64,000 nucleotides of DNA, from assembly GCF_029227855.1 (NCBI RefSeq), contig NZ_CP074356.1; one strand, written 5' to 3'. Positions within the stretch are counted from its first letter, which is position 1. Each line of letters begins with the position of its first letter. The position numbers and the translations under genes are program-made. The stretch comes from Escherichia coli (GTDB lineage Bacteria > Pseudomonadota > Gammaproteobacteria > Enterobacterales > Enterobacteriaceae). The notes under the pieces were generated by a model. That model saw nothing but the letters and a program-made list of their open reading frames with translations, had not been told where the DNA came from and searched no databases. Shown here piece after piece: positions 5,132-54,604 of this stretch.

Positions 5132-8022
<2,891 letters not shown>

Positions 8023-8281
8023 CGGATTTTATCCTGTTATCAGTAGGGTAGATGTAGTTGTTATCAGTCGACGTGACGGAAAAATGCCGATGCTGAAACG
8101 GAATTAGGAAACCGGTTTCACAAAATCATGAATAGTTGTCACTAAATAAGCAAGAGAGTTAATTGTTCATTTTTTATATTTGTGAAACCGGTCACCTGAA
8201 TATTTTTCCCGCCGATTGCGCAAGGACAATCGGCAAACGGTGCAGTACACTGCGTTGATTGCGTGTAAAGGGATGAAAATG

Positions 8282-10120: not shown

Positions 10121-12361
10121 ATGGCAAAAAACACATCTTGCGGTGTCCAACTGCGTATTCGTGGCAAAGTGCAGGGCGTCGGTTTTCGTCCGTTTGTCTG
10201 GCAGCTGGCACAGCAATTAAATCTTCACGGCGATGTCTGTAATGACGGCGATGGCGTAGAAGTCCGGCTGCTGGAAGACCCGGAAACGTTTCTTGTGCAG
10301 TTGCATCAGCACTGCCCGCCGCTGGCGCGTATTGATAGCGTCGAGCGTGAGCCGTTTATCTGGTCACAGCCGCCCACCGAGTTCACCATCCGCCAGAGCA
10401 CAGGCGGCACCATGAATACGCAAATTGTTCCCGATGCCGCCACTTGCCCTGCCTGTCTTGCCGAAATGAATACCCCAGGCGAGCGGCGTTATCGTTATCC
10501 GTTTATCAACTGTACTCACTGTGGCCCGCGTTTCACCATTATTCGCGCCATGCCTTACGACCGCCCGTTTACCGTAATGGCGGCGTTTCCGCTGTGTCCA
10601 GCCTGTGATAAAGAGTACCGCGACCCGCTCGATCGTCGCTTCCACGCCCAGCCGGTGGCCTGCCCAGAGTGTGGCCCACATCTTGAATGGGTAAGTCATG
10701 GTGAACATGCGGAACAAGAGGCGGCATTACAGGCAGCTATCGCACAGTTAAAAATGGGCAACATTGTCGCCATCAAAGGGATTGGCGGATTTCATCTTGC
10801 CTGCGATGCACGTAACAGTAACGCGGTGGCGACACTGCGGGCGCGCAAACATCGCCCGGCGAAACCGCTGGCGGTTATGTTGCCAGTGGCAGAAGGTTTA
10901 CCAGACGCTGCCCGTCAGTTGCTTACCACACCCGCCGCGCCGATTGTGCTGGTGGATAAAAAATATGTACCTGAGCTTTGTGATGATATCGCCCCTGGCC
11001 TTAACGAAGTCGGGGTAATGTTGCCTGCGAACCCGCTCCAGCATTTGCTGTTACAGGAACTGCAATGCCCGCTGGTGATGACCTCCGGTAACCTGAGCGG
11101 TAAACCACCGGCTATCAGCAACGAACAGGCGCTGGCGGATTTGCAGGGCATTGCCGACGGATTCTTGATACATAACCGCGACATCGTGCAGCGGATGGAT
11201 GATTCGGTGGTGCGCGAAAGCGGCGAAATGCTGCGCCGTTCGCGGGGGTATGTGCCGGATGCGCTGGCTTTGCCTCCGGGTTTTAAAAATGTTCCGCCTG
11301 TGCTGTGTCTCGGCGCGGATCTGAAAAACACCTTCTGCCTGGTGCGCGGCGAACAAGCGGTGTTGAGTCAGCATCTGGGCGATTTAAGTGACGATGGCAT
11401 CCAGATGCAGTGGCGCGAAGCGTTACGCCTGATGCAAAACATCTACGATTTTACCCCGCAATACGTTGTGCATGACCTGCATCCGGGCTATGTCTCCAGC
11501 CAGTGGGCGCGCGAAATGAATCTGCCGACGCAAACGGTGCTGCATCATCATGCTCATGCGGCGGCGTGTCTGGCAGAACATCACTGGCCACTGGATGGCG
11601 GTGATGTCATTGCGTTGACGCTCGACGGTATCGGTATGGGGGAGAACGGCGCTTTATGGGGCGGCGAGTGCCTGCGGGTGAACTATCGCGAATGCCAGCA
11701 CCTGGGCGGCTTGCCTGCAGTGGCGCTTGCTGGGGGCGATTTGGCGGCGAAGCAGCCGTGGCGTAACCTGCTGGCGCAGTGCCTGCGCTTTGTGCCGGAG
11801 TGGCAGAATTACCCTGAAACGGCAAGTGTGCAACAGCAAAACTGGAGCGTGCTGGCGCGGGCCATTGAGCGTGGAATTAACGCGCCGCTGGCGTCATCGT
11901 GTGGGCGTTTGTTCGATGCTGTGGCGGCGGCACTGGGCTGTGCGCCAGCCACGTTAAGCTATGAAGGTGAAGCGGCTTGTGCTCTGGAGGCGCTAGCAGC
12001 TTCATGCGACGGAGTGACGCATCCGGTGACGATACCGCTGGTGGACAATCAACTGGATCTCGCCACTTTCTGGCAGCAGTGGCTGAACTGGCAGGCACCG
12101 GTTAATCAACGCGCGTGGGCGTTTCATGATGCGCTGGCGCAGGGTTTTGCCGCGTTGATGCGTGAGCAGGCCACGATGCGTGGTATCACTACGCTGGTAT
12201 TTAGCGGCGGGGTTATTCATAACCGTTTGCTGCGTGCACGTCTGGCGCATTATCTCGCTGATTTCACATTGCTCTTTCCACAGAGTTTACCGGCGGGTGA
12301 TGGCGGCTTGTCTCTGGGGCAGGGGGTTATTGCTGCGGCGCGCATCCTGCATGCTGCATAG
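10121..12361 (+). CDS. hypF: Carbamoyltransferase HypF (NiFe hydrogenase maturation)
   Basis: Acylphosphatase-like N-terminus, zinc-finger CxxC pairs, YrdC and Kae1-like regions; start chosen at MAKNTSCG (ORF track starts at 10049). Confidence 0.88.
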
Positions 12362-12404
12362 TGGTGGATGTGGCGTAACTAAGCGTAAAAAGAGCGCGGA
12401 CAGT

Positions 12405-12427
12405 CCCCTCGCCCTTTGGGCGAGGGA
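12405..12427. terminator. Hairpin (cccctcgccc-ttt-gggcgaggg) between convergent hypF and norW; candidate bidirectional terminator
   Basis: 9-bp GC-rich stem read from sequence; A-run follows. Confidence 0.45.
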
Positions 12428-12438
12428 GAAAACCATGC

Positions 12439-13572
12439 CTACACCGGCAACGTTTTCAACAATCCAAACGCCTCTTTCATCCGATCCTCACTGACCACAA
12501 AGGCGCGAAGCTGGTCTGTATCGTCAACGCCGCGTGCCACCATTCCCTGATGTTCGGTACAAATCTGCCAGCGCAAATCCCGACGCTGGGTTTCGCCTGC
12601 CAGATGCAGCGGTAATTCCGGCGTTTTGATTTTCACCAGCATCGCAGGGAGTTTCAGCGGCGTGTTATTGCCGAGAAGATTTTTTGCCAGCACCATCGCG
12701 CTAAGTTGAATCGGCTGGAGGAACGGCAATACCTGACCGTTAATTTCCGCGCAATCGCCCAGCGCATAAATATCGGCATTACTGGTTTGCAGATAACTAT
12801 CGACGCAAACGCCGCGATTAATCGTCAGCCCGGCGCGTCGTGCCAGGGCGGTTTCCGGGCGCAGCCCGGTGGCGGCAATTACCGCATCCACTTCGATGCT
12901 GCGCTGGCGGTCCAGCGTTGCCAGAATGCCAGAATCCGTTTTTTCCAGCCCCTGCAACTGAGATTTCAACAGCAGATGAACGCCCATCTCCGTCAACCGA
13001 TGCTGCAAGCGGCTGCTTACTTCCGGTGGCATTAACGACGCCAGAATACTGGCAGCGTTGTCGATTAGCGTGACCGCTTTGCCTGCACGACAAAAATCCA
13101 TCGCCAGTTCGCTACCAATCAAGCCACCGCCAACAATCAACACGCGTCGGGCATCCCGCAGTTGCGTTTCACAGGCGCGATACTCTTGCTGACTATTTAA
13201 CGTCAGCATTAACTCACGCCCAGGCACTGGCGGGACAAAGGCACTGGCACCAGTTGCCAGCACCAGCTTGTCGTATTGCCACTGATTATTCTGGCTTTTC
13301 ACCACATGGGCTTCGGCATCGATATCCGTTACCCAGGTGTGCGGAAACAGGCGCAGATTAAACTTCTCGGCAAATTCACCTGCCGTCTGGCGGGTAAGGT
13401 CATCGGCACGTTGCCCCTGGCTGATAACATGGCTGAGGTCAGGTTTGTTGTACTCATCCATGCTGTCGGCGGCAATCAGGGTTAATGGAATACTGGCGTC
13501 CTGTTTGCGAATATTTTTCACCAGTTGGCGGGCGGCGAAGCCCGAACCAATGATCACAATGCCGTTGCTCAT
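12439..13572 (-). CDS. norW: NADH:flavorubredoxin reductase
   Basis: 377 aa, FAD/NAD-binding GxGxxG motifs; overlaps norV stop. Confidence 0.92.
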
Positions 13573-28840: not shown

Positions 28841-28933
28841 GGTGAGGTGGCCGAGAGGCTGAAGGCGCTCCCCTGCTAAGGGAGTATGCGGTCAAAAGCT
28901 GCATCCGGGGTTCGAATCCCCGCCTCACCGCCA
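28841..28933 (+). tRNA. serV: tRNA-Ser (anticodon GCT)
   Basis: 93-nt cloverleaf with long variable arm, anticodon loop ctGCTaa, 3' CCA. Confidence 0.9.
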
Positions 28934-28936
28934 TTT

Positions 28937-29013
28937 GCATCCGTAGCTCAGCTGGATAGAGTACTCGGCTACGAACCGAGCGGTCGGAGGTTCGAATCCT
29001 CCCGGATGCACCA
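28937..29013 (+). tRNA. argV: tRNA-Arg (anticodon ACG), copy 1
   Basis: gcatccgtagctcagctggatag...ggttcgaatcctcccggatgcacca; anticodon loop ctACGaa; symbol by position. Confidence 0.9.
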
Positions 29014-29127
29014 TATTCTACGTACTTTCAGCGATGAAGGTATGGAAGAGGTGGCGGTAATAACCGCAGGCACCAGGGAGGATAACGTTGCTTTAGCAAC
29101 GGCCCGAAGGGCGAGCCGCAAGGCGAG

Positions 29128-29147
29128 TAATCCTCCCGGATGCACCA
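29128..29147 (+). other. Orphan tRNA-Arg 3'-end fragment (taatcctcccggatgcacca)
   Basis: Matches the last ~17 nt plus CCA of the adjacent Arg tRNAs without the upstream tRNA body. Confidence 0.5.
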
Positions 29148-29211
29148 TCTCTTACTTGATACGGCTTTAGTAGCGGTATCAAAAAATCTGAAGTAAAGTA
29201 AGTTTCCCGAT

Positions 29212-29288
29212 GCATCCGTAGCTCAGCTGGATAGAGTACTCGGCTACGAACCGAGCGGTCGGAGGTTCGAATCCTCCCGGATGCACCA
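29212..29288 (+). tRNA. argY: tRNA-Arg (ACG), copy 2
   Basis: Same sequence as copy 1. Confidence 0.9.
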
Positions 29289-29350
29289 TCTCTTACTTGA
29301 TATGGCTTTAGCAGCGGTATCAATATCAGCAGTAAAATAAATTTCCCGAT

Positions 29351-29427
29351 GCATCCGTAGCTCAGCTGGATAGAGTACTCGGCTACGAACCGAGCGGTCG
29401 GAGGTTCGAATCCTCCCGGATGCACCA
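29351..29427 (+). tRNA. argZ: tRNA-Arg (ACG), copy 3
   Basis: Same sequence as copy 1. Confidence 0.9.
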
Positions 29428-29529
29428 TATTCTCCGTAATCATCAGTGATGATGGTTAAGATGGATTTTCTTATTTGATATGGCTTTAGTAGCGGTATCA
29501 ATATCAGCAGTAAAATAAGTTTTCCCGAT

Positions 29530-29606
29530 GCATCCGTAGCTCAGCTGGATAGAGTACTCGGCTACGAACCGAGCGGTCGGAGGTTCGAATCCTCCCGGAT
29601 GCACCA
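29530..29606 (+). tRNA. argQ: tRNA-Arg (ACG), copy 4
   Basis: Same sequence as copy 1. Confidence 0.9.
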
Positions 29607-32382: not shown

Positions 32383-32455
32383 AAAAAGGCCACTCGTGAG
32401 TGGCCAAAATTTCATCTCTGAATTCAGGGATGATGATAACAAATGCGCGTCTTTC
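32383..32455 (-). ncRNA. micA: MicA (SraD) Hfq-dependent sRNA
   Basis: Reverse complement reads gaaagacgcgcatttgttatcatcatccctgaattcagagatgaaattttggccactcacgagtggccttttt, ending in an intrinsic terminator. Confidence 0.85.
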
Positions 32456-39048: not shown

Positions 39049-39129
39049 TGTAGGCATGATAAGACGCGCCAGCGTCGCATCAGGCATTGTATACAGAGTG
39101 GCGGATGCGGCGAAAACACCTTATCCGCC
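39049..39129. repeat. BIME: two REP elements in inverted orientation
   Basis: First REP is the reverse complement of the canonical gcctgatgcgacgctggcgcgtcttatcatgcctac; second is gcggatgcggcgaaaacaccttatccgc. Confidence 0.7.
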
Positions 39130-39139
39130 CGAATAAAAA

Positions 39140-51612: not shown

Positions 51613-53013
51613 TTAGCGCGTATTATGAACGGGTGTTTTTTGCCACAATACCAGCTTTTTCCAGCGAGCCATAATTGGCACGGTACAGATTATCCCTATC
51701 GCTAATAAACCGGTGGAGATCACTTCTAACTGTTGCGCCGGGCGGAATAGCATCACTACCAACACAAAGGTTATAAAACCGATGACCAGCCAGGTGAGCC
51801 ACGGATAAAGCCACATCCGCAGGCGAATTTCGCTTCCTTCTGCTCGCAGAATTTTGCGCATCCGCAATTGTGAAACGGCGATGACTAAATAAACCAGCAG
51901 GGCGATAGCGCCGGAGCTATCGATCAGAAATTTAAACACTTTCGCAGGTGCGTAATAATTCACCACCACCGTTAAAAATGCCGCACCGGTCGAGAGTAAT
52001 ACCGCCACATACGGGGTTTTACTGCGGTTGATTTTACCCATTACCGCGGGAGCATCACCGCGACGGCTTAAGGAGTAGAGCATTCTGGAAGCGGTATACA
52101 GCGCCGAGTTCAGGCAACTGGTTACGGAAAGTAATATCACGCAGTCCATGATTAATTTCGCATGGGGAATATTGAGCAACTCCAGAACCGAGCGATAAGA
52201 TCCAACGGCTTTCAGCCCCGGCATATTCCACGGTATTAATGCCACCACGACAAAAATAGAGCATAAATAGAAGATAGAAATACGCCAGATAACCGAGTTG
52301 GTGGCGCGGACAATATGTTTTTCCGGCGTGTCAGATTCCGCGGCGGCAATGGTGACAATTTCTGCGCCCATAAACGAGAACATAGTGATCAACATCGCGC
52401 TTAATACCGCACCGAAGCCGTTGGGCATAAAGCCGCCGCTATCCCACAATCTTGAGATCCCGCTCACTTCGGCATAAGGGTAAAAACCGCTAATTGCGAC
52501 TGCACCAAGGAAAATAAAGGCCAGGATAGCGATGACTTTGCACAGCGCCAGCCAGAATTCAAATTCGCCGTAGTTTTTAACGCTTAATAAATTACTGCCA
52601 GTTAAGGCGAGGGTAATGACGAGGGAAAATAACCAGATGGGAATGCCTGGAACCCACGAGTGCAGGATCATGGCGGCGATGTTGGCTTCCAGCGGGATAA
52701 CCAGTACCCAAAACCACCAGTACAGCCAGCCGATGGTATAACCCGCCCAGCGGCCAATTGCCTTGTCGGCATAGGTGGAAAACGAACCCGTGTCGGGCGT
52801 GGCAACCGCCATTTCCGCCAACATCCGCATAATCATAACCACCAGTAATCCGGCGAACAGATAGGCCAGTAATACCGCCGGGCCCGCTTCGGCGATGGCG
52901 ACGCTGGAACCGACAAACAGACTTGCGCCGATAACACCGGCAATAGACAACATGGTGACGTGGCGTGACTTCAGCCCGCCGCCTAACTCATGTGGTTGCG
53001 ATGATTGCCCCAT
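51613..53013 (-). CDS. gabP: GABA permease (APC family)
   Basis: Recognised; start chosen at MGQSSQPHEL (ORF track extends 29 codons upstream). Confidence 0.92.
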   Translation of the reverse strand: MGQSSQPHELGGGLKSRHVTMLSIAGVIGASLFVGSSVAIAEAGPAVLLAYLFAGLLVVMIMRMLAEMAVATPDTGSFSTYADKAIGRWAGYTIGWLYWWFWVLVIPLEANIAAMILHSWVPGIPIWLFSLVITLALTGSNLLSVKNYGEFEFWLALCKVIAILAFIFLGAVAISGFYPYAEVSGISRLWDSGGFMPNGFGAVLSAMLITMFSFMGAEIVTIAAAESDTPEKHIVRATNSVIWRISIFYLCSIFVVVALIPWNMPGLKAVGSYRSVLELLNIPHAKLIMDCVILLSVTSCLNSALYTASRMLYSLSRRGDAPAVMGKINRSKTPYVAVLLSTGAAFLTVVVNYYAPAKVFKFLIDSSGAIALLVYLVIAVSQLRMRKILRAEGSEIRLRMWLYPWLTWLVIGFITFVLVVMLFRPAQQLEVISTGLLAIGIICTVPIMARWKKLVLWQKTPVHNTR

Positions 53014-53150
53014 CCTGAATCCTCTCGAAAGTGTGTCACTTGGGAGAGCGCCCCGACATTTCCCGCGTCGGGTCACGCGTGTAATTGAGACGGTCAACAA
53101 AATCTTAAAAACGAAAGCGGGATGGTTTTCTCCTTCTCCCTCAGGGATAG

Positions 53151-53230
53151 GGCCGGGGGAGGGGTTAGTCGCGTTTTTTACCCCTCACCCTAACCCTCTC
53201 CCCAGAGGGGCGAGGGGACTGTCCGCAGTC
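53151..53230. repeat. GC-rich intergenic repeat with nested palindromes between gabP and gabT
   Basis: ggccgggggaggggttag...cccctcaccctaaccctctcccc agaggggcgaggggactgtccgc; shares a 19-20 nt core with the hairpin at 12396-12414. Confidence 0.5.
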
Positions 53231-53323
53231 GTTTTTAACTTTGTCGTTCGCCTCATCGTTATTATTTTTTACTGCATCGTTATCATTCCCTTAGCAACGG
53301 TTAACTCTTACGAACGGACATGA

Positions 53324-54604
53324 CTACTGCTTCGCCTCAGCAAAACACTGGCTGATGATCTCCAGACCCTGACGGATCTGAGCGTCTTCAATGGTGAGCG
53401 GTACAAGGATGCGCAGCACGTTGTAATACGGGCCGCAGGAGAGAAGAATCAGGCCCTTATCGCGGGCGCGCGCCACGATCTCGGCGGTGAGTTTTGCGTC
53501 CGGTTTGCTGTGATCGCCATCTTCAAACAGCTCGATGGCGATCATCGCTCCCAGCCCGCGTACGTCGCCGATCTCAGTATGTTTTTCGGCTATCGCCAGC
53601 AATCCGTCTTTCAGTTTCTGCCCCAGATCGTTGGCTTTTTGTAGCAGATTTTCCTGCTCAAACACCTTCAACACTTCCAGCGCAGCCACGCAGGCAATCG
53701 GGTTACCCGCATAGGTGCCGCCCAGACCGCCTGGAGCGACGGCATCCATCACTTCCGCGCGCCCGGTGACGCCCGCCAGCGGGAAGCCGCCCGCGATCGA
53801 TTTCGCAAAGGTGGTAAGATCCGGCGCAACGCCCATCTGCTCCATCGCAAACAGCGTGCCGGTACGCCCCGCGCCGCTCTGCACTTCATCGGCAATCAGC
53901 ATGATCCCGTGCTCGTCACACAGCGCGCGTAAACGCTGCATAAAGGCTGGCGTCGCGGCGTAGAAACCGCCTTCGCCCTGAACCGGCTCAATCACGATGG
54001 CGGCGATATCTTCCGGCGCAGCGTCATTTTTAAAGATCCGGTGGATGCTGGCGATAGCGTCATCTTCACTGATGCCGTGCAGCGGGCAAGGATAAAGCGC
54101 GCGATAAACGTGCCCAGGCATCAGTCCCATGCCCGCAGAGTACGGATTCACCTTGCCGGTCAGCGCCAACGTGTAGTGCGTACGCCCGTGATACGCGCCG
54201 CTAAAGGCGATGGTCCCGTTGCGTTTGGTGGCGGCGCGGGCGATTTTCACCGCGTTTTCCACCGCTTCGGAACCTGTGGTGACCAGCAGCGTTTTCTTGG
54301 CAAAATCGCCTGGCACCTTCTGATTCATAATCTCGCACAGCTCCAGATACGGCTCGTAGGCCAGCACCTGGAAGCAGGTGTGCGACAGCTTTTTCAACTG
54401 CGCTTCCACCGCCGCAACCACTTTCGGATGCAGGTGCCCGGTATTGAGCACCGCAATGCCGCCCGCGAAATCAAGATACTCACGGCCTTCAACGTCCCAC
54501 ACCCGGCAGTTTTCCGCGCGGTCAGCGAAAATGGGGTGAATTTGCCCAACGCCACGGGGAATCGCCTGACTGCGGCGCTGCATTAACTCTTTATTGCTGC
54601 TCAT
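53324..54604 (-). CDS. gabT: 4-aminobutyrate aminotransferase
   Basis: 426 aa, recognised PLP enzyme. Confidence 0.95.
   Translation of the reverse strand: MSSNKELMQRRSQAIPRGVGQIHPIFADRAENCRVWDVEGREYLDFAGGIAVLNTGHLHPKVVAAVEAQLKKLSHTCFQVLAYEPYLELCEIMNQKVPGDFAKKTLLVTTGSEAVENAVKIARAATKRNGTIAFSGAYHGRTHYTLALTGKVNPYSAGMGLMPGHVYRALYPCPLHGISEDDAIASIHRIFKNDAAPEDIAAIVIEPVQGEGGFYAATPAFMQRLRALCDEHGIMLIADEVQSGAGRTGTLFAMEQMGVAPDLTTFAKSIAGGFPLAGVTGRAEVMDAVAPGGLGGTYAGNPIACVAALEVLKVFEQENLLQKANDLGQKLKDGLLAIAEKHTEIGDVRGLGAMIAIELFEDGDHSKPDAKLTAEIVARARDKGLILLSCGPYYNVLRILVPLTIEDAQIRQGLEIISQCFAEAKQ

Follow-up and report, generated by a model that had tools for sequence, protein, structure and literature searches.

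Two intergenic repeats at hypF/norW and gabT/gabP of Escherichia coli assigned to collapsed and composite forms of BoxC

Two GC-rich intergenic sites in a 64,000-nt window of Escherichia coli DNA (the whole stretch analysed here), one between hypF and norW and the other between gabT and gabP, share an exact 19-nt core and, by alignment, are copies of BoxC (also PIT, TMECO or HPG1/HPG2), a published E. coli intergenic repeat; the gabT/gabP copy is composite and the hypF/norW copy is collapsed. The overall explanation, which joins BoxC identity in composite and collapsed forms with neutral or selfish turnover and an effect at the RNA level, is probably right. BoxC would then count as neutral or selfish DNA, tolerated in intergenic positions at the 3′ ends of genes and turning over fast. 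The finding is correct but ordinary, because the core marks two copies of a repeat family described since the 1990s, and both the family and its collapsed form are already published.

Results

The preliminary description had reported that one core recurs in inverted orientation at two intergenic sites, and this holds exactly, with a + strand copy of the 19-mer GCGGACAGTCCCCTCGCCC at 12396-12414 and a − strand copy at 53208-53226. Its gene calls were right, with hypF and norW convergent and gabT and gabP both on the − strand; the second core interval, given as 53207-53226, was one base too long (53207 has no pairing to 12415), and the larger gab element, placed at 53151-53230, proves wider, at ~53124-53246. 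With up to three mismatches allowed, the 19-mer matches the 64-kb window twice, compared with 0.06 matches expected, and two matches were reached in 1/100 shuffles. Positions 12378-12424 align with 53198-53244 (47 nt, 77%) and 12406-12439 with 53119-53152 (34 nt, 79%), so the 12.4-kb copy resembles both ends of the 53.1-kb element. A coincidental match between two GC-rich hairpins would sit easily with the presence of only two copies within the window, but the low expectation, the extension of similarity to these lengths on either side and the reappearance of the same junction in K-12 copies make coincidence a practically negligible explanation. Judged from the alignments, the 19-mer is the junction of the type-A flank (its last 10 nt) with the C-arm, not the centre of the element. 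It differs from K-12 copies by one mismatch at adk/hemH and fimH/gntP and by two at ygfF/gcvP and yihR/yihS.

The name BoxC is reportedly owed to Bachellier, Clement and Hofnung. TMECO is equated with the BoxC repeat of the 1990s and with the PIT element of Hoyne and Maher (2000) by Holder et al. (2015, NAR, PMC4666352), whose Table 1 lists 23 MG1655 copies at 18 sites, and GGGAGAGGGTTAGGGTGAGGG is described as a G-quadruplex/hairpin motif, HPG1/HPG2, by Kaplan et al. (2016, NAR, PMC5100583). Petrillo et al. (2008) count BoxC as one of the stem-loop families known in E. coli, with 22 copies found versus 32 copies of 56 bp in the literature. All 18 K-12 sites (23 copies) were extracted with flanks and aligned here. 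Type-A units read CCCTCGCCCC-loop-GGGGAGAGGG-TTA-GGGTGAGGGG, and CCG or TCG replaces TTA in type-B units. Type-A copies in K-12 carry a left flank of approximately GATGACAAAGT.TAAAAA.G.GC.CGGACAGTC (consensus ..gacaA...AAAAa.G.gc.CGgaCgGTC), strongly conserved over ~12 nt and recognisable over ~40 nt, and type-B units share the flank GGTTTTCT. Composites run in the order A flank, C-arm, loop, G-arm, TTA, third G-block, inside spacer of ~27 nt, inverted B unit and AGAAAACC. On these alignments, BoxC is a mosaic family of two unit types, each with its own flanks, joined either in inverted orientation via the inside spacer or by an outside linker. As the flanks belong to the repeat unit, the triplex/G4 motif alone under-describes BoxC. 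The idea that the mismatch of 'A mm' units is compensated by the G-arm of the partner B unit was rejected, being true for only 1/4 K-12 composites (ygfF/gcvP).

Arms of the form CCCTC(G/T)CCC, a short loop and GGG(A/C)GAGGG are present at 12406-12426 and 53181-53217. An A flank (..AAAAA.G.GC.CGGACAGTC) and a reverse-complemented B flank occur in both window copies, the flank consensus being derived in this analysis from the K-12 copies and not from the literature. The third G-rich block (TTA or CCG, then GGGTGAGGG) is found in the gab type-A unit and is missing from the hypF/norW copy. The repeat is dispersed, multi-copy and intergenic: across 5425 E. coli genomes, the 111-nt gab element matches at 17 places in the median genome, and a related flank/arm junction is present in 16/16 type-A K-12 copies, which upholds the proposal of a dispersed repeat family distinct from REP. 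The preliminary description had suggested a genome-wide count and RNA folding of both copies as checks, and both bear it out, with many copies (known K-12 set, n=23 at 18 intergenic sites) and stable folds at hypF/norW and gab. K-12 has no BoxC at either window site, and the list of 23 MG1655 copies accordingly includes neither. Rfam, which has no BoxC family, gave no match to either window copy at gathering or permissive thresholds; the only matches, to microRNA hairpins and an antizyme frameshift element, fell far below the cut-offs and were dismissed as chance. Gathering-level Rfam matches elsewhere in the window were naRNA4 (39053-39130, −), the MicA sRNA (32384-32455, −), a cluster of five tRNA genes (28841-29603, +) and one more tRNA (61503-61575, +).

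gabT (53324-54604, −) and gabP (51613-53013, −) are separated by an intercistronic spacer of 310 nt. The element at ~53124-53246 is, from its aligned parts, a composite inverted pair in which the A unit is intact and the B unit has decayed. It begins with the type-B flank and a degenerate type-B unit, CCTTCTCCC tca GGGATAGGG cc GGGGGAGGGG (53124-53164, +), which can be aligned to B units from K-12 composites and compared with TMECO type B in Table 1 of PMC4666352. Composite alignment places an inside spacer of 16 nt, shorter than the ~27 nt of most K-12 composites, at 53165-53180 between the inverted units. The intact type-A BoxC/TMECO unit, CCCTCGCCCCTCTGGGGAGAGGGTTAGGGTGAGGGG (53181-53217, −), is letter-identical to K-12 TMECO nos. 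9, 16, 19 and 22, which the same table types as 'A mm'. The type-A flank CGACAAAGTTAAAAACGACTGCGGACAGTC (53218-53246, −), recognised by alignment to K-12 type-A flanks, gives the second core copy together with the adjacent arm. The gab element folds as one long imperfect hairpin, with −61.4 kcal/mol on the mRNA-sense strand and −67.5 kcal/mol on the other (z ~−4.2). From the gabT stop to the A flank (53247-53323), ~77 nt of AT-rich sequence with repeated AACGATG lacks a counterpart in the K-12 spacer.

hypF (+, stop 12359-12361) and norW (−, stop 12439-12441) converge on a spacer of 77 nt, and the hairpin that the preliminary description placed between them folds as claimed, as a 9-bp stem at 12406-12426 that lies 44 nt past the hypF stop and 12 nt past the norW stop. 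This single BoxC hairpin, CCCTCGCCC / TTT / GGGCGAGGG, has a perfect stem of Watson-Crick pairs, and its arms are the sole BoxC arm 9-mers in that part of the window; the spacer has MFE values of −28.3 / −26.4 kcal/mol (z −2.4 / −3.1). A type-A flank (12379-12405, +), which is half of the outside linker, ends in GCGGACAGTC, contains the first 10 nt of the 19-mer and aligns with K-12 type-A flanks. On the other side, AGAAAACC (12427-12434, +) is the reverse complement of the type-B flank, and the same end occurs in K-12 composites and in the short form of Escherichia sp. E1V33. Positions 12379-12434 thus comprise the two outer ends of a composite (A flank, C-arm, 3-nt loop, G-arm, B flank) with the internal parts gone. 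Read in this way, the hypF/norW copy is a collapsed BoxC derivative and not TMECO proper; its third G-block is absent, so it is not on its own a triplex or G4 motif. The degenerate REP left half TGGTGGATGTGGCGTAA (12362-12378, +) is broken at the REP loop and aligns to K-12 GCCGGATGCGGCGTAA|ACGCC..., and by this alignment it is a remnant of the REP that fills the hypF/norW spacer in K-12. This left arm ends in the REP loop and directly abuts the BoxC flank, forming a hairpin-loop junction; as a single case, the junction says little about targeting.

A comparison at an orthologous locus shows how such a short form arises. The hrpB/mrcB spacer holds a full composite in K-12 and a short form in Escherichia sp. 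E1V33, with flanks matching K-12. The two differ by a 64-nt deletion that reaches exactly from one C-arm to its direct repeat in the inverted unit, with the B-type ACA loop kept, and at this locus the alignment documents collapse from composite to short form. The same collapse is reported as the 'palindrome effect', with replication slippage proposed, by Holder et al. (2015, PMC4666352). Deletion between directly repeated arms by replication slippage is thus the most likely route from composite to collapsed form, and we infer it for hypF/norW. No composite allele was seen at hypF/norW among the sampled genomes (~4 of 684 short-form genomes), so collapse in place there is itself inferred, and the short unit could have arrived already collapsed.

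A scan for the short architecture, with one genome per species, returned 22 stretches, almost all from Enterobacteriaceae. In other genomes, the short unit and outside linker have been amplified into plain tandem arrays, as in Pseudenterobacter timonensis (8.5 units of 46 nt, running from B unit to A unit, positions 5453-5843 of the extracted locus), E. coli E69 (at least six units of 70 nt, starting with a B unit beside a canonical REP, positions 1-421 of the extracted locus) and Pseudocitrobacter faecalis (62-nt period, positions 7950-8133 of the extracted locus). A CRISPR reading of these arrays was rejected, since the linkers repeat too: whole 46- and 70-nt units recur at 94-98% identity, with no unique spacers. 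Exact short-form BoxC, including a three-unit array, was also found in records titled Phycisphaerales MAG and Chryseobacterium sp. 18061; such non-enterobacterial matches are probably contamination or mis-binning.

Both spacers vary among strains. The hypF/norW BoxC allele aligns across the spacer in 684/5426 genomes, the rest reaching only 68% of the 301-nt query, and the gab BoxC allele is found in 1304/5426 genomes, the sampled rest being ~73 nt shorter, which is the length of the K-12 REP-type spacer. Strains with both BoxC alleles include JNEC-KY178, ST2747, KE55 and GMF054. Five alternative hypF/norW spacers (from K-12 and four other genomes) are REP arrays of 127 nt (K-12), ~224 nt or 419 nt with no BoxC arms, and the K-12 gab spacer also carries REPs. 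The alternative spacers of K-12 and E6 match the REP-derived Rfam family naRNA4 with E values down to 4.6e-07 (that of the K-12 hypF/norW spacer), below the gathering score, whereas the window BoxC sites have no naRNA4 match. The REP consensus hairpin (GCCGGATG..N..CATCCGGC plus a CTAC tail) is likewise absent from both elements, except for the 17-nt remnant at 12362-12378. Coding flanks are 98.6-100% identical between alleles. At hypF/norW the replacement begins within hypF: a 26-nt K-12 hypF 3′ segment is missing (window 12336-12361), the frame enters sequence that is post-stop in K-12, and the C-terminus reads ...AAAR-ILHAA-stop in the window versus ...AAAR-WLAGEVQNG-stop in K-12. At gab, ~235 nt of spacer is wholly different between alleles and holds no REP remnant. 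Because the whole spacer differs rather than the element alone, the history of the gab site involves more than simple insertion.

Curated Term-seq 3′ ends (Adams et al. 2021, PMC7815308, supplementary file 1) were checked at the 18 K-12 BoxC sites. Ends lie past BoxC stems at 4/18 sites, namely 3781065+ (the primary lldD end, 4 nt past the stem), 3959467− (4 nt), 164636+ (5 nt) and 624567− (12 nt); in three of the four, the element is read in the same direction as norW transcription reads the short copy of the window. At the remaining 14/18 sites, the curated set contains no 3′ end at the element. Ends of the former kind, a few nt past a stable stem that lacks a U-tract, are compatible with an exonuclease barrier or with a weak stop that needs no added factor. 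Within the divergent region between fepB and entC, a very abundant end at 624680 (−), in the fepB 5′ leader, lies directly upstream of a type-B BoxC and so precedes the hairpin rather than trailing it. At 3959499 (−), the ppiC terminator hairpin takes its U-tract from the type-B flank GTTTTCT, so a BoxC flank can be recruited into a canonical terminator.

Discussion

REP elements have an established role at RNA 3′ ends as exonuclease barriers or weak factor-independent stops. A GC hairpin of the BoxC kind would similarly hold transcript 3′ ends a few nt past its stem, either as a barrier to 3′-5′ exonucleases or as a weak stop independent of a U-tract. Such a REP-like effect at RNA 3′ ends is the most likely effect of the BoxC copies, with a probability that we place just short of even. 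It would be predicted to shape the 3′ ends of norW and hypF mRNAs and to alter the relative stability of gabDT and gabP mRNA.

A rival reading, in which the hairpin between hypF and norW is an intrinsic (Rho-independent) terminator working in both directions and the gab element an attenuator within its operon, draws on the position of the short copy between convergent genes, its strong GC stem, the Term-seq 3′ ends that fall at family members (the primary lldD end among them) and the minimum-free-energy fold of the gab − strand, in which the closing stem is followed by the U-rich UUUAAGAUUUUG; a terminator role is also speculated on by Kaplan et al. (2016, PMC5100583). We regard this as unlikely, as a GC stem with a U-tract within 0-2 nt is absent on the main stems (tails AGAAAACC and GACTGTCC), and at hypF/norW the main stem is followed by AGAAAACC on the + strand and GACUGUCCGCGC on the − strand, with no abutting U-tract on either. 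A consensus scan called no terminator at the main hairpin and picked up just one weak alternative stem of 5 bp; K-12 gcvP and ppiC have a separate canonical terminator just upstream of BoxC; and PIT elements showed no promoter or terminator activity in earlier reporter work, as summarised by Holder et al. (2015, PMC4666352). A different possibility concerns DNA-level structure, with BoxC as a triplex or G-quadruplex/hairpin switch that regulates neighbouring genes or replication. Three blocks that form an intrastrand triplex or G4 in vitro (PMC4666352 and PMC5100583) are present in the intact type-A unit at 53181-53217, but the third of them is missing from the hypF/norW copy and the B unit at gab has degenerated. 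Holder et al. (2015, PMC4666352) also report that DMS probing in vivo gave no support for a stable triplex and that TMECO was not linked to the function of flanking genes. A switch of this type is accordingly judged very improbable.

REPs are mobilised by RAYT, a transposase that recognises hairpins, and BoxC could by analogy be an actively mobile, non-autonomous element (MITE-like or transposase-mobilised) that targets REP hairpin loops and was inserted into REPs at both window sites. Dispersed copies with conserved flanks, presence that differs between strains, the loop-broken REP left arm joined directly to the BoxC flank at hypF/norW, and the adjoining of BoxC and REPs in K-12 (pstB/pstA, fimH/gntP, frlR/yhfS) and in E. 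coli E69 all point this way. Against it, BoxC has no terminal inverted repeats, the A flank being unrelated to the B flank; the junctions with K-12-type sequence show no target-site duplication, a weak comparison in that K-12 spacers are not true empty sites; the REP-loop junction is a single case; and ~235 nt were replaced at gab with no REP remnant. To our knowledge, BoxC has no associated gene. In a comparison of 56 genomes, Holder et al. (2015, PMC4666352) found the majority of TMECO copies to keep their locus. Taken together, we consider targeted insertion improbable and retain fast turnover of neutral or selfish DNA, with a REP-like RNA 3′-end effect, as the preferred reading.

REP-type and BoxC alleles at both spacers offer a natural experiment on the effects of hairpins at mRNA 3′ ends. 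Alternation of REP and BoxC at the same sites is not mentioned in the accessible text of the BoxC/TMECO papers (PMC4666352, PMC5100583). REP and BoxC might act as interchangeable 3′-hairpin cassettes, either through selection for a hairpin at the RNA 3′ end or through entry of BoxC at REP-loop breaks; this is a speculative idea, and we give it a low probability. For annotation, the two copies should be labelled BoxC (composite and collapsed) and not a new family, and the finding has little importance beyond that.

The two copies can be set beside three known systems. They share with Rho-independent terminators a GC-rich stem-loop just past stop codons, and some family members lie at mapped RNA 3′ ends; the BoxC stem differs in having no adjacent U-tract in either direction. 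Among known BoxC/TMECO copies, the gab copy matches in being an exact type-A TMECO with an inverted B unit, as at five tandem-inverted K-12 sites, and in its intergenic position near gene 3′ ends, and it differs in its degenerate B unit and an inside spacer ~11 nt under the usual length; the hypF/norW copy has both flanks and the hairpin arms and corresponds to the 'palindrome effect' form. Compared with REP/BIME elements, the sequences are unrelated and BoxC has no GCCGGATG...CCGGCCTAC motif, and we know of no RAYT-like partner for it. The likenesses to REP/BIME are in organisation and location: both are short GC-rich extragenic hairpins arranged as mosaics in which linkers join two types of unit, both occur as tandem arrays and at the 3′ ends of genes, with copy numbers that differ among strains, and REPs fill these same two spacers in K-12, as they do hypF/norW in four other genomes.
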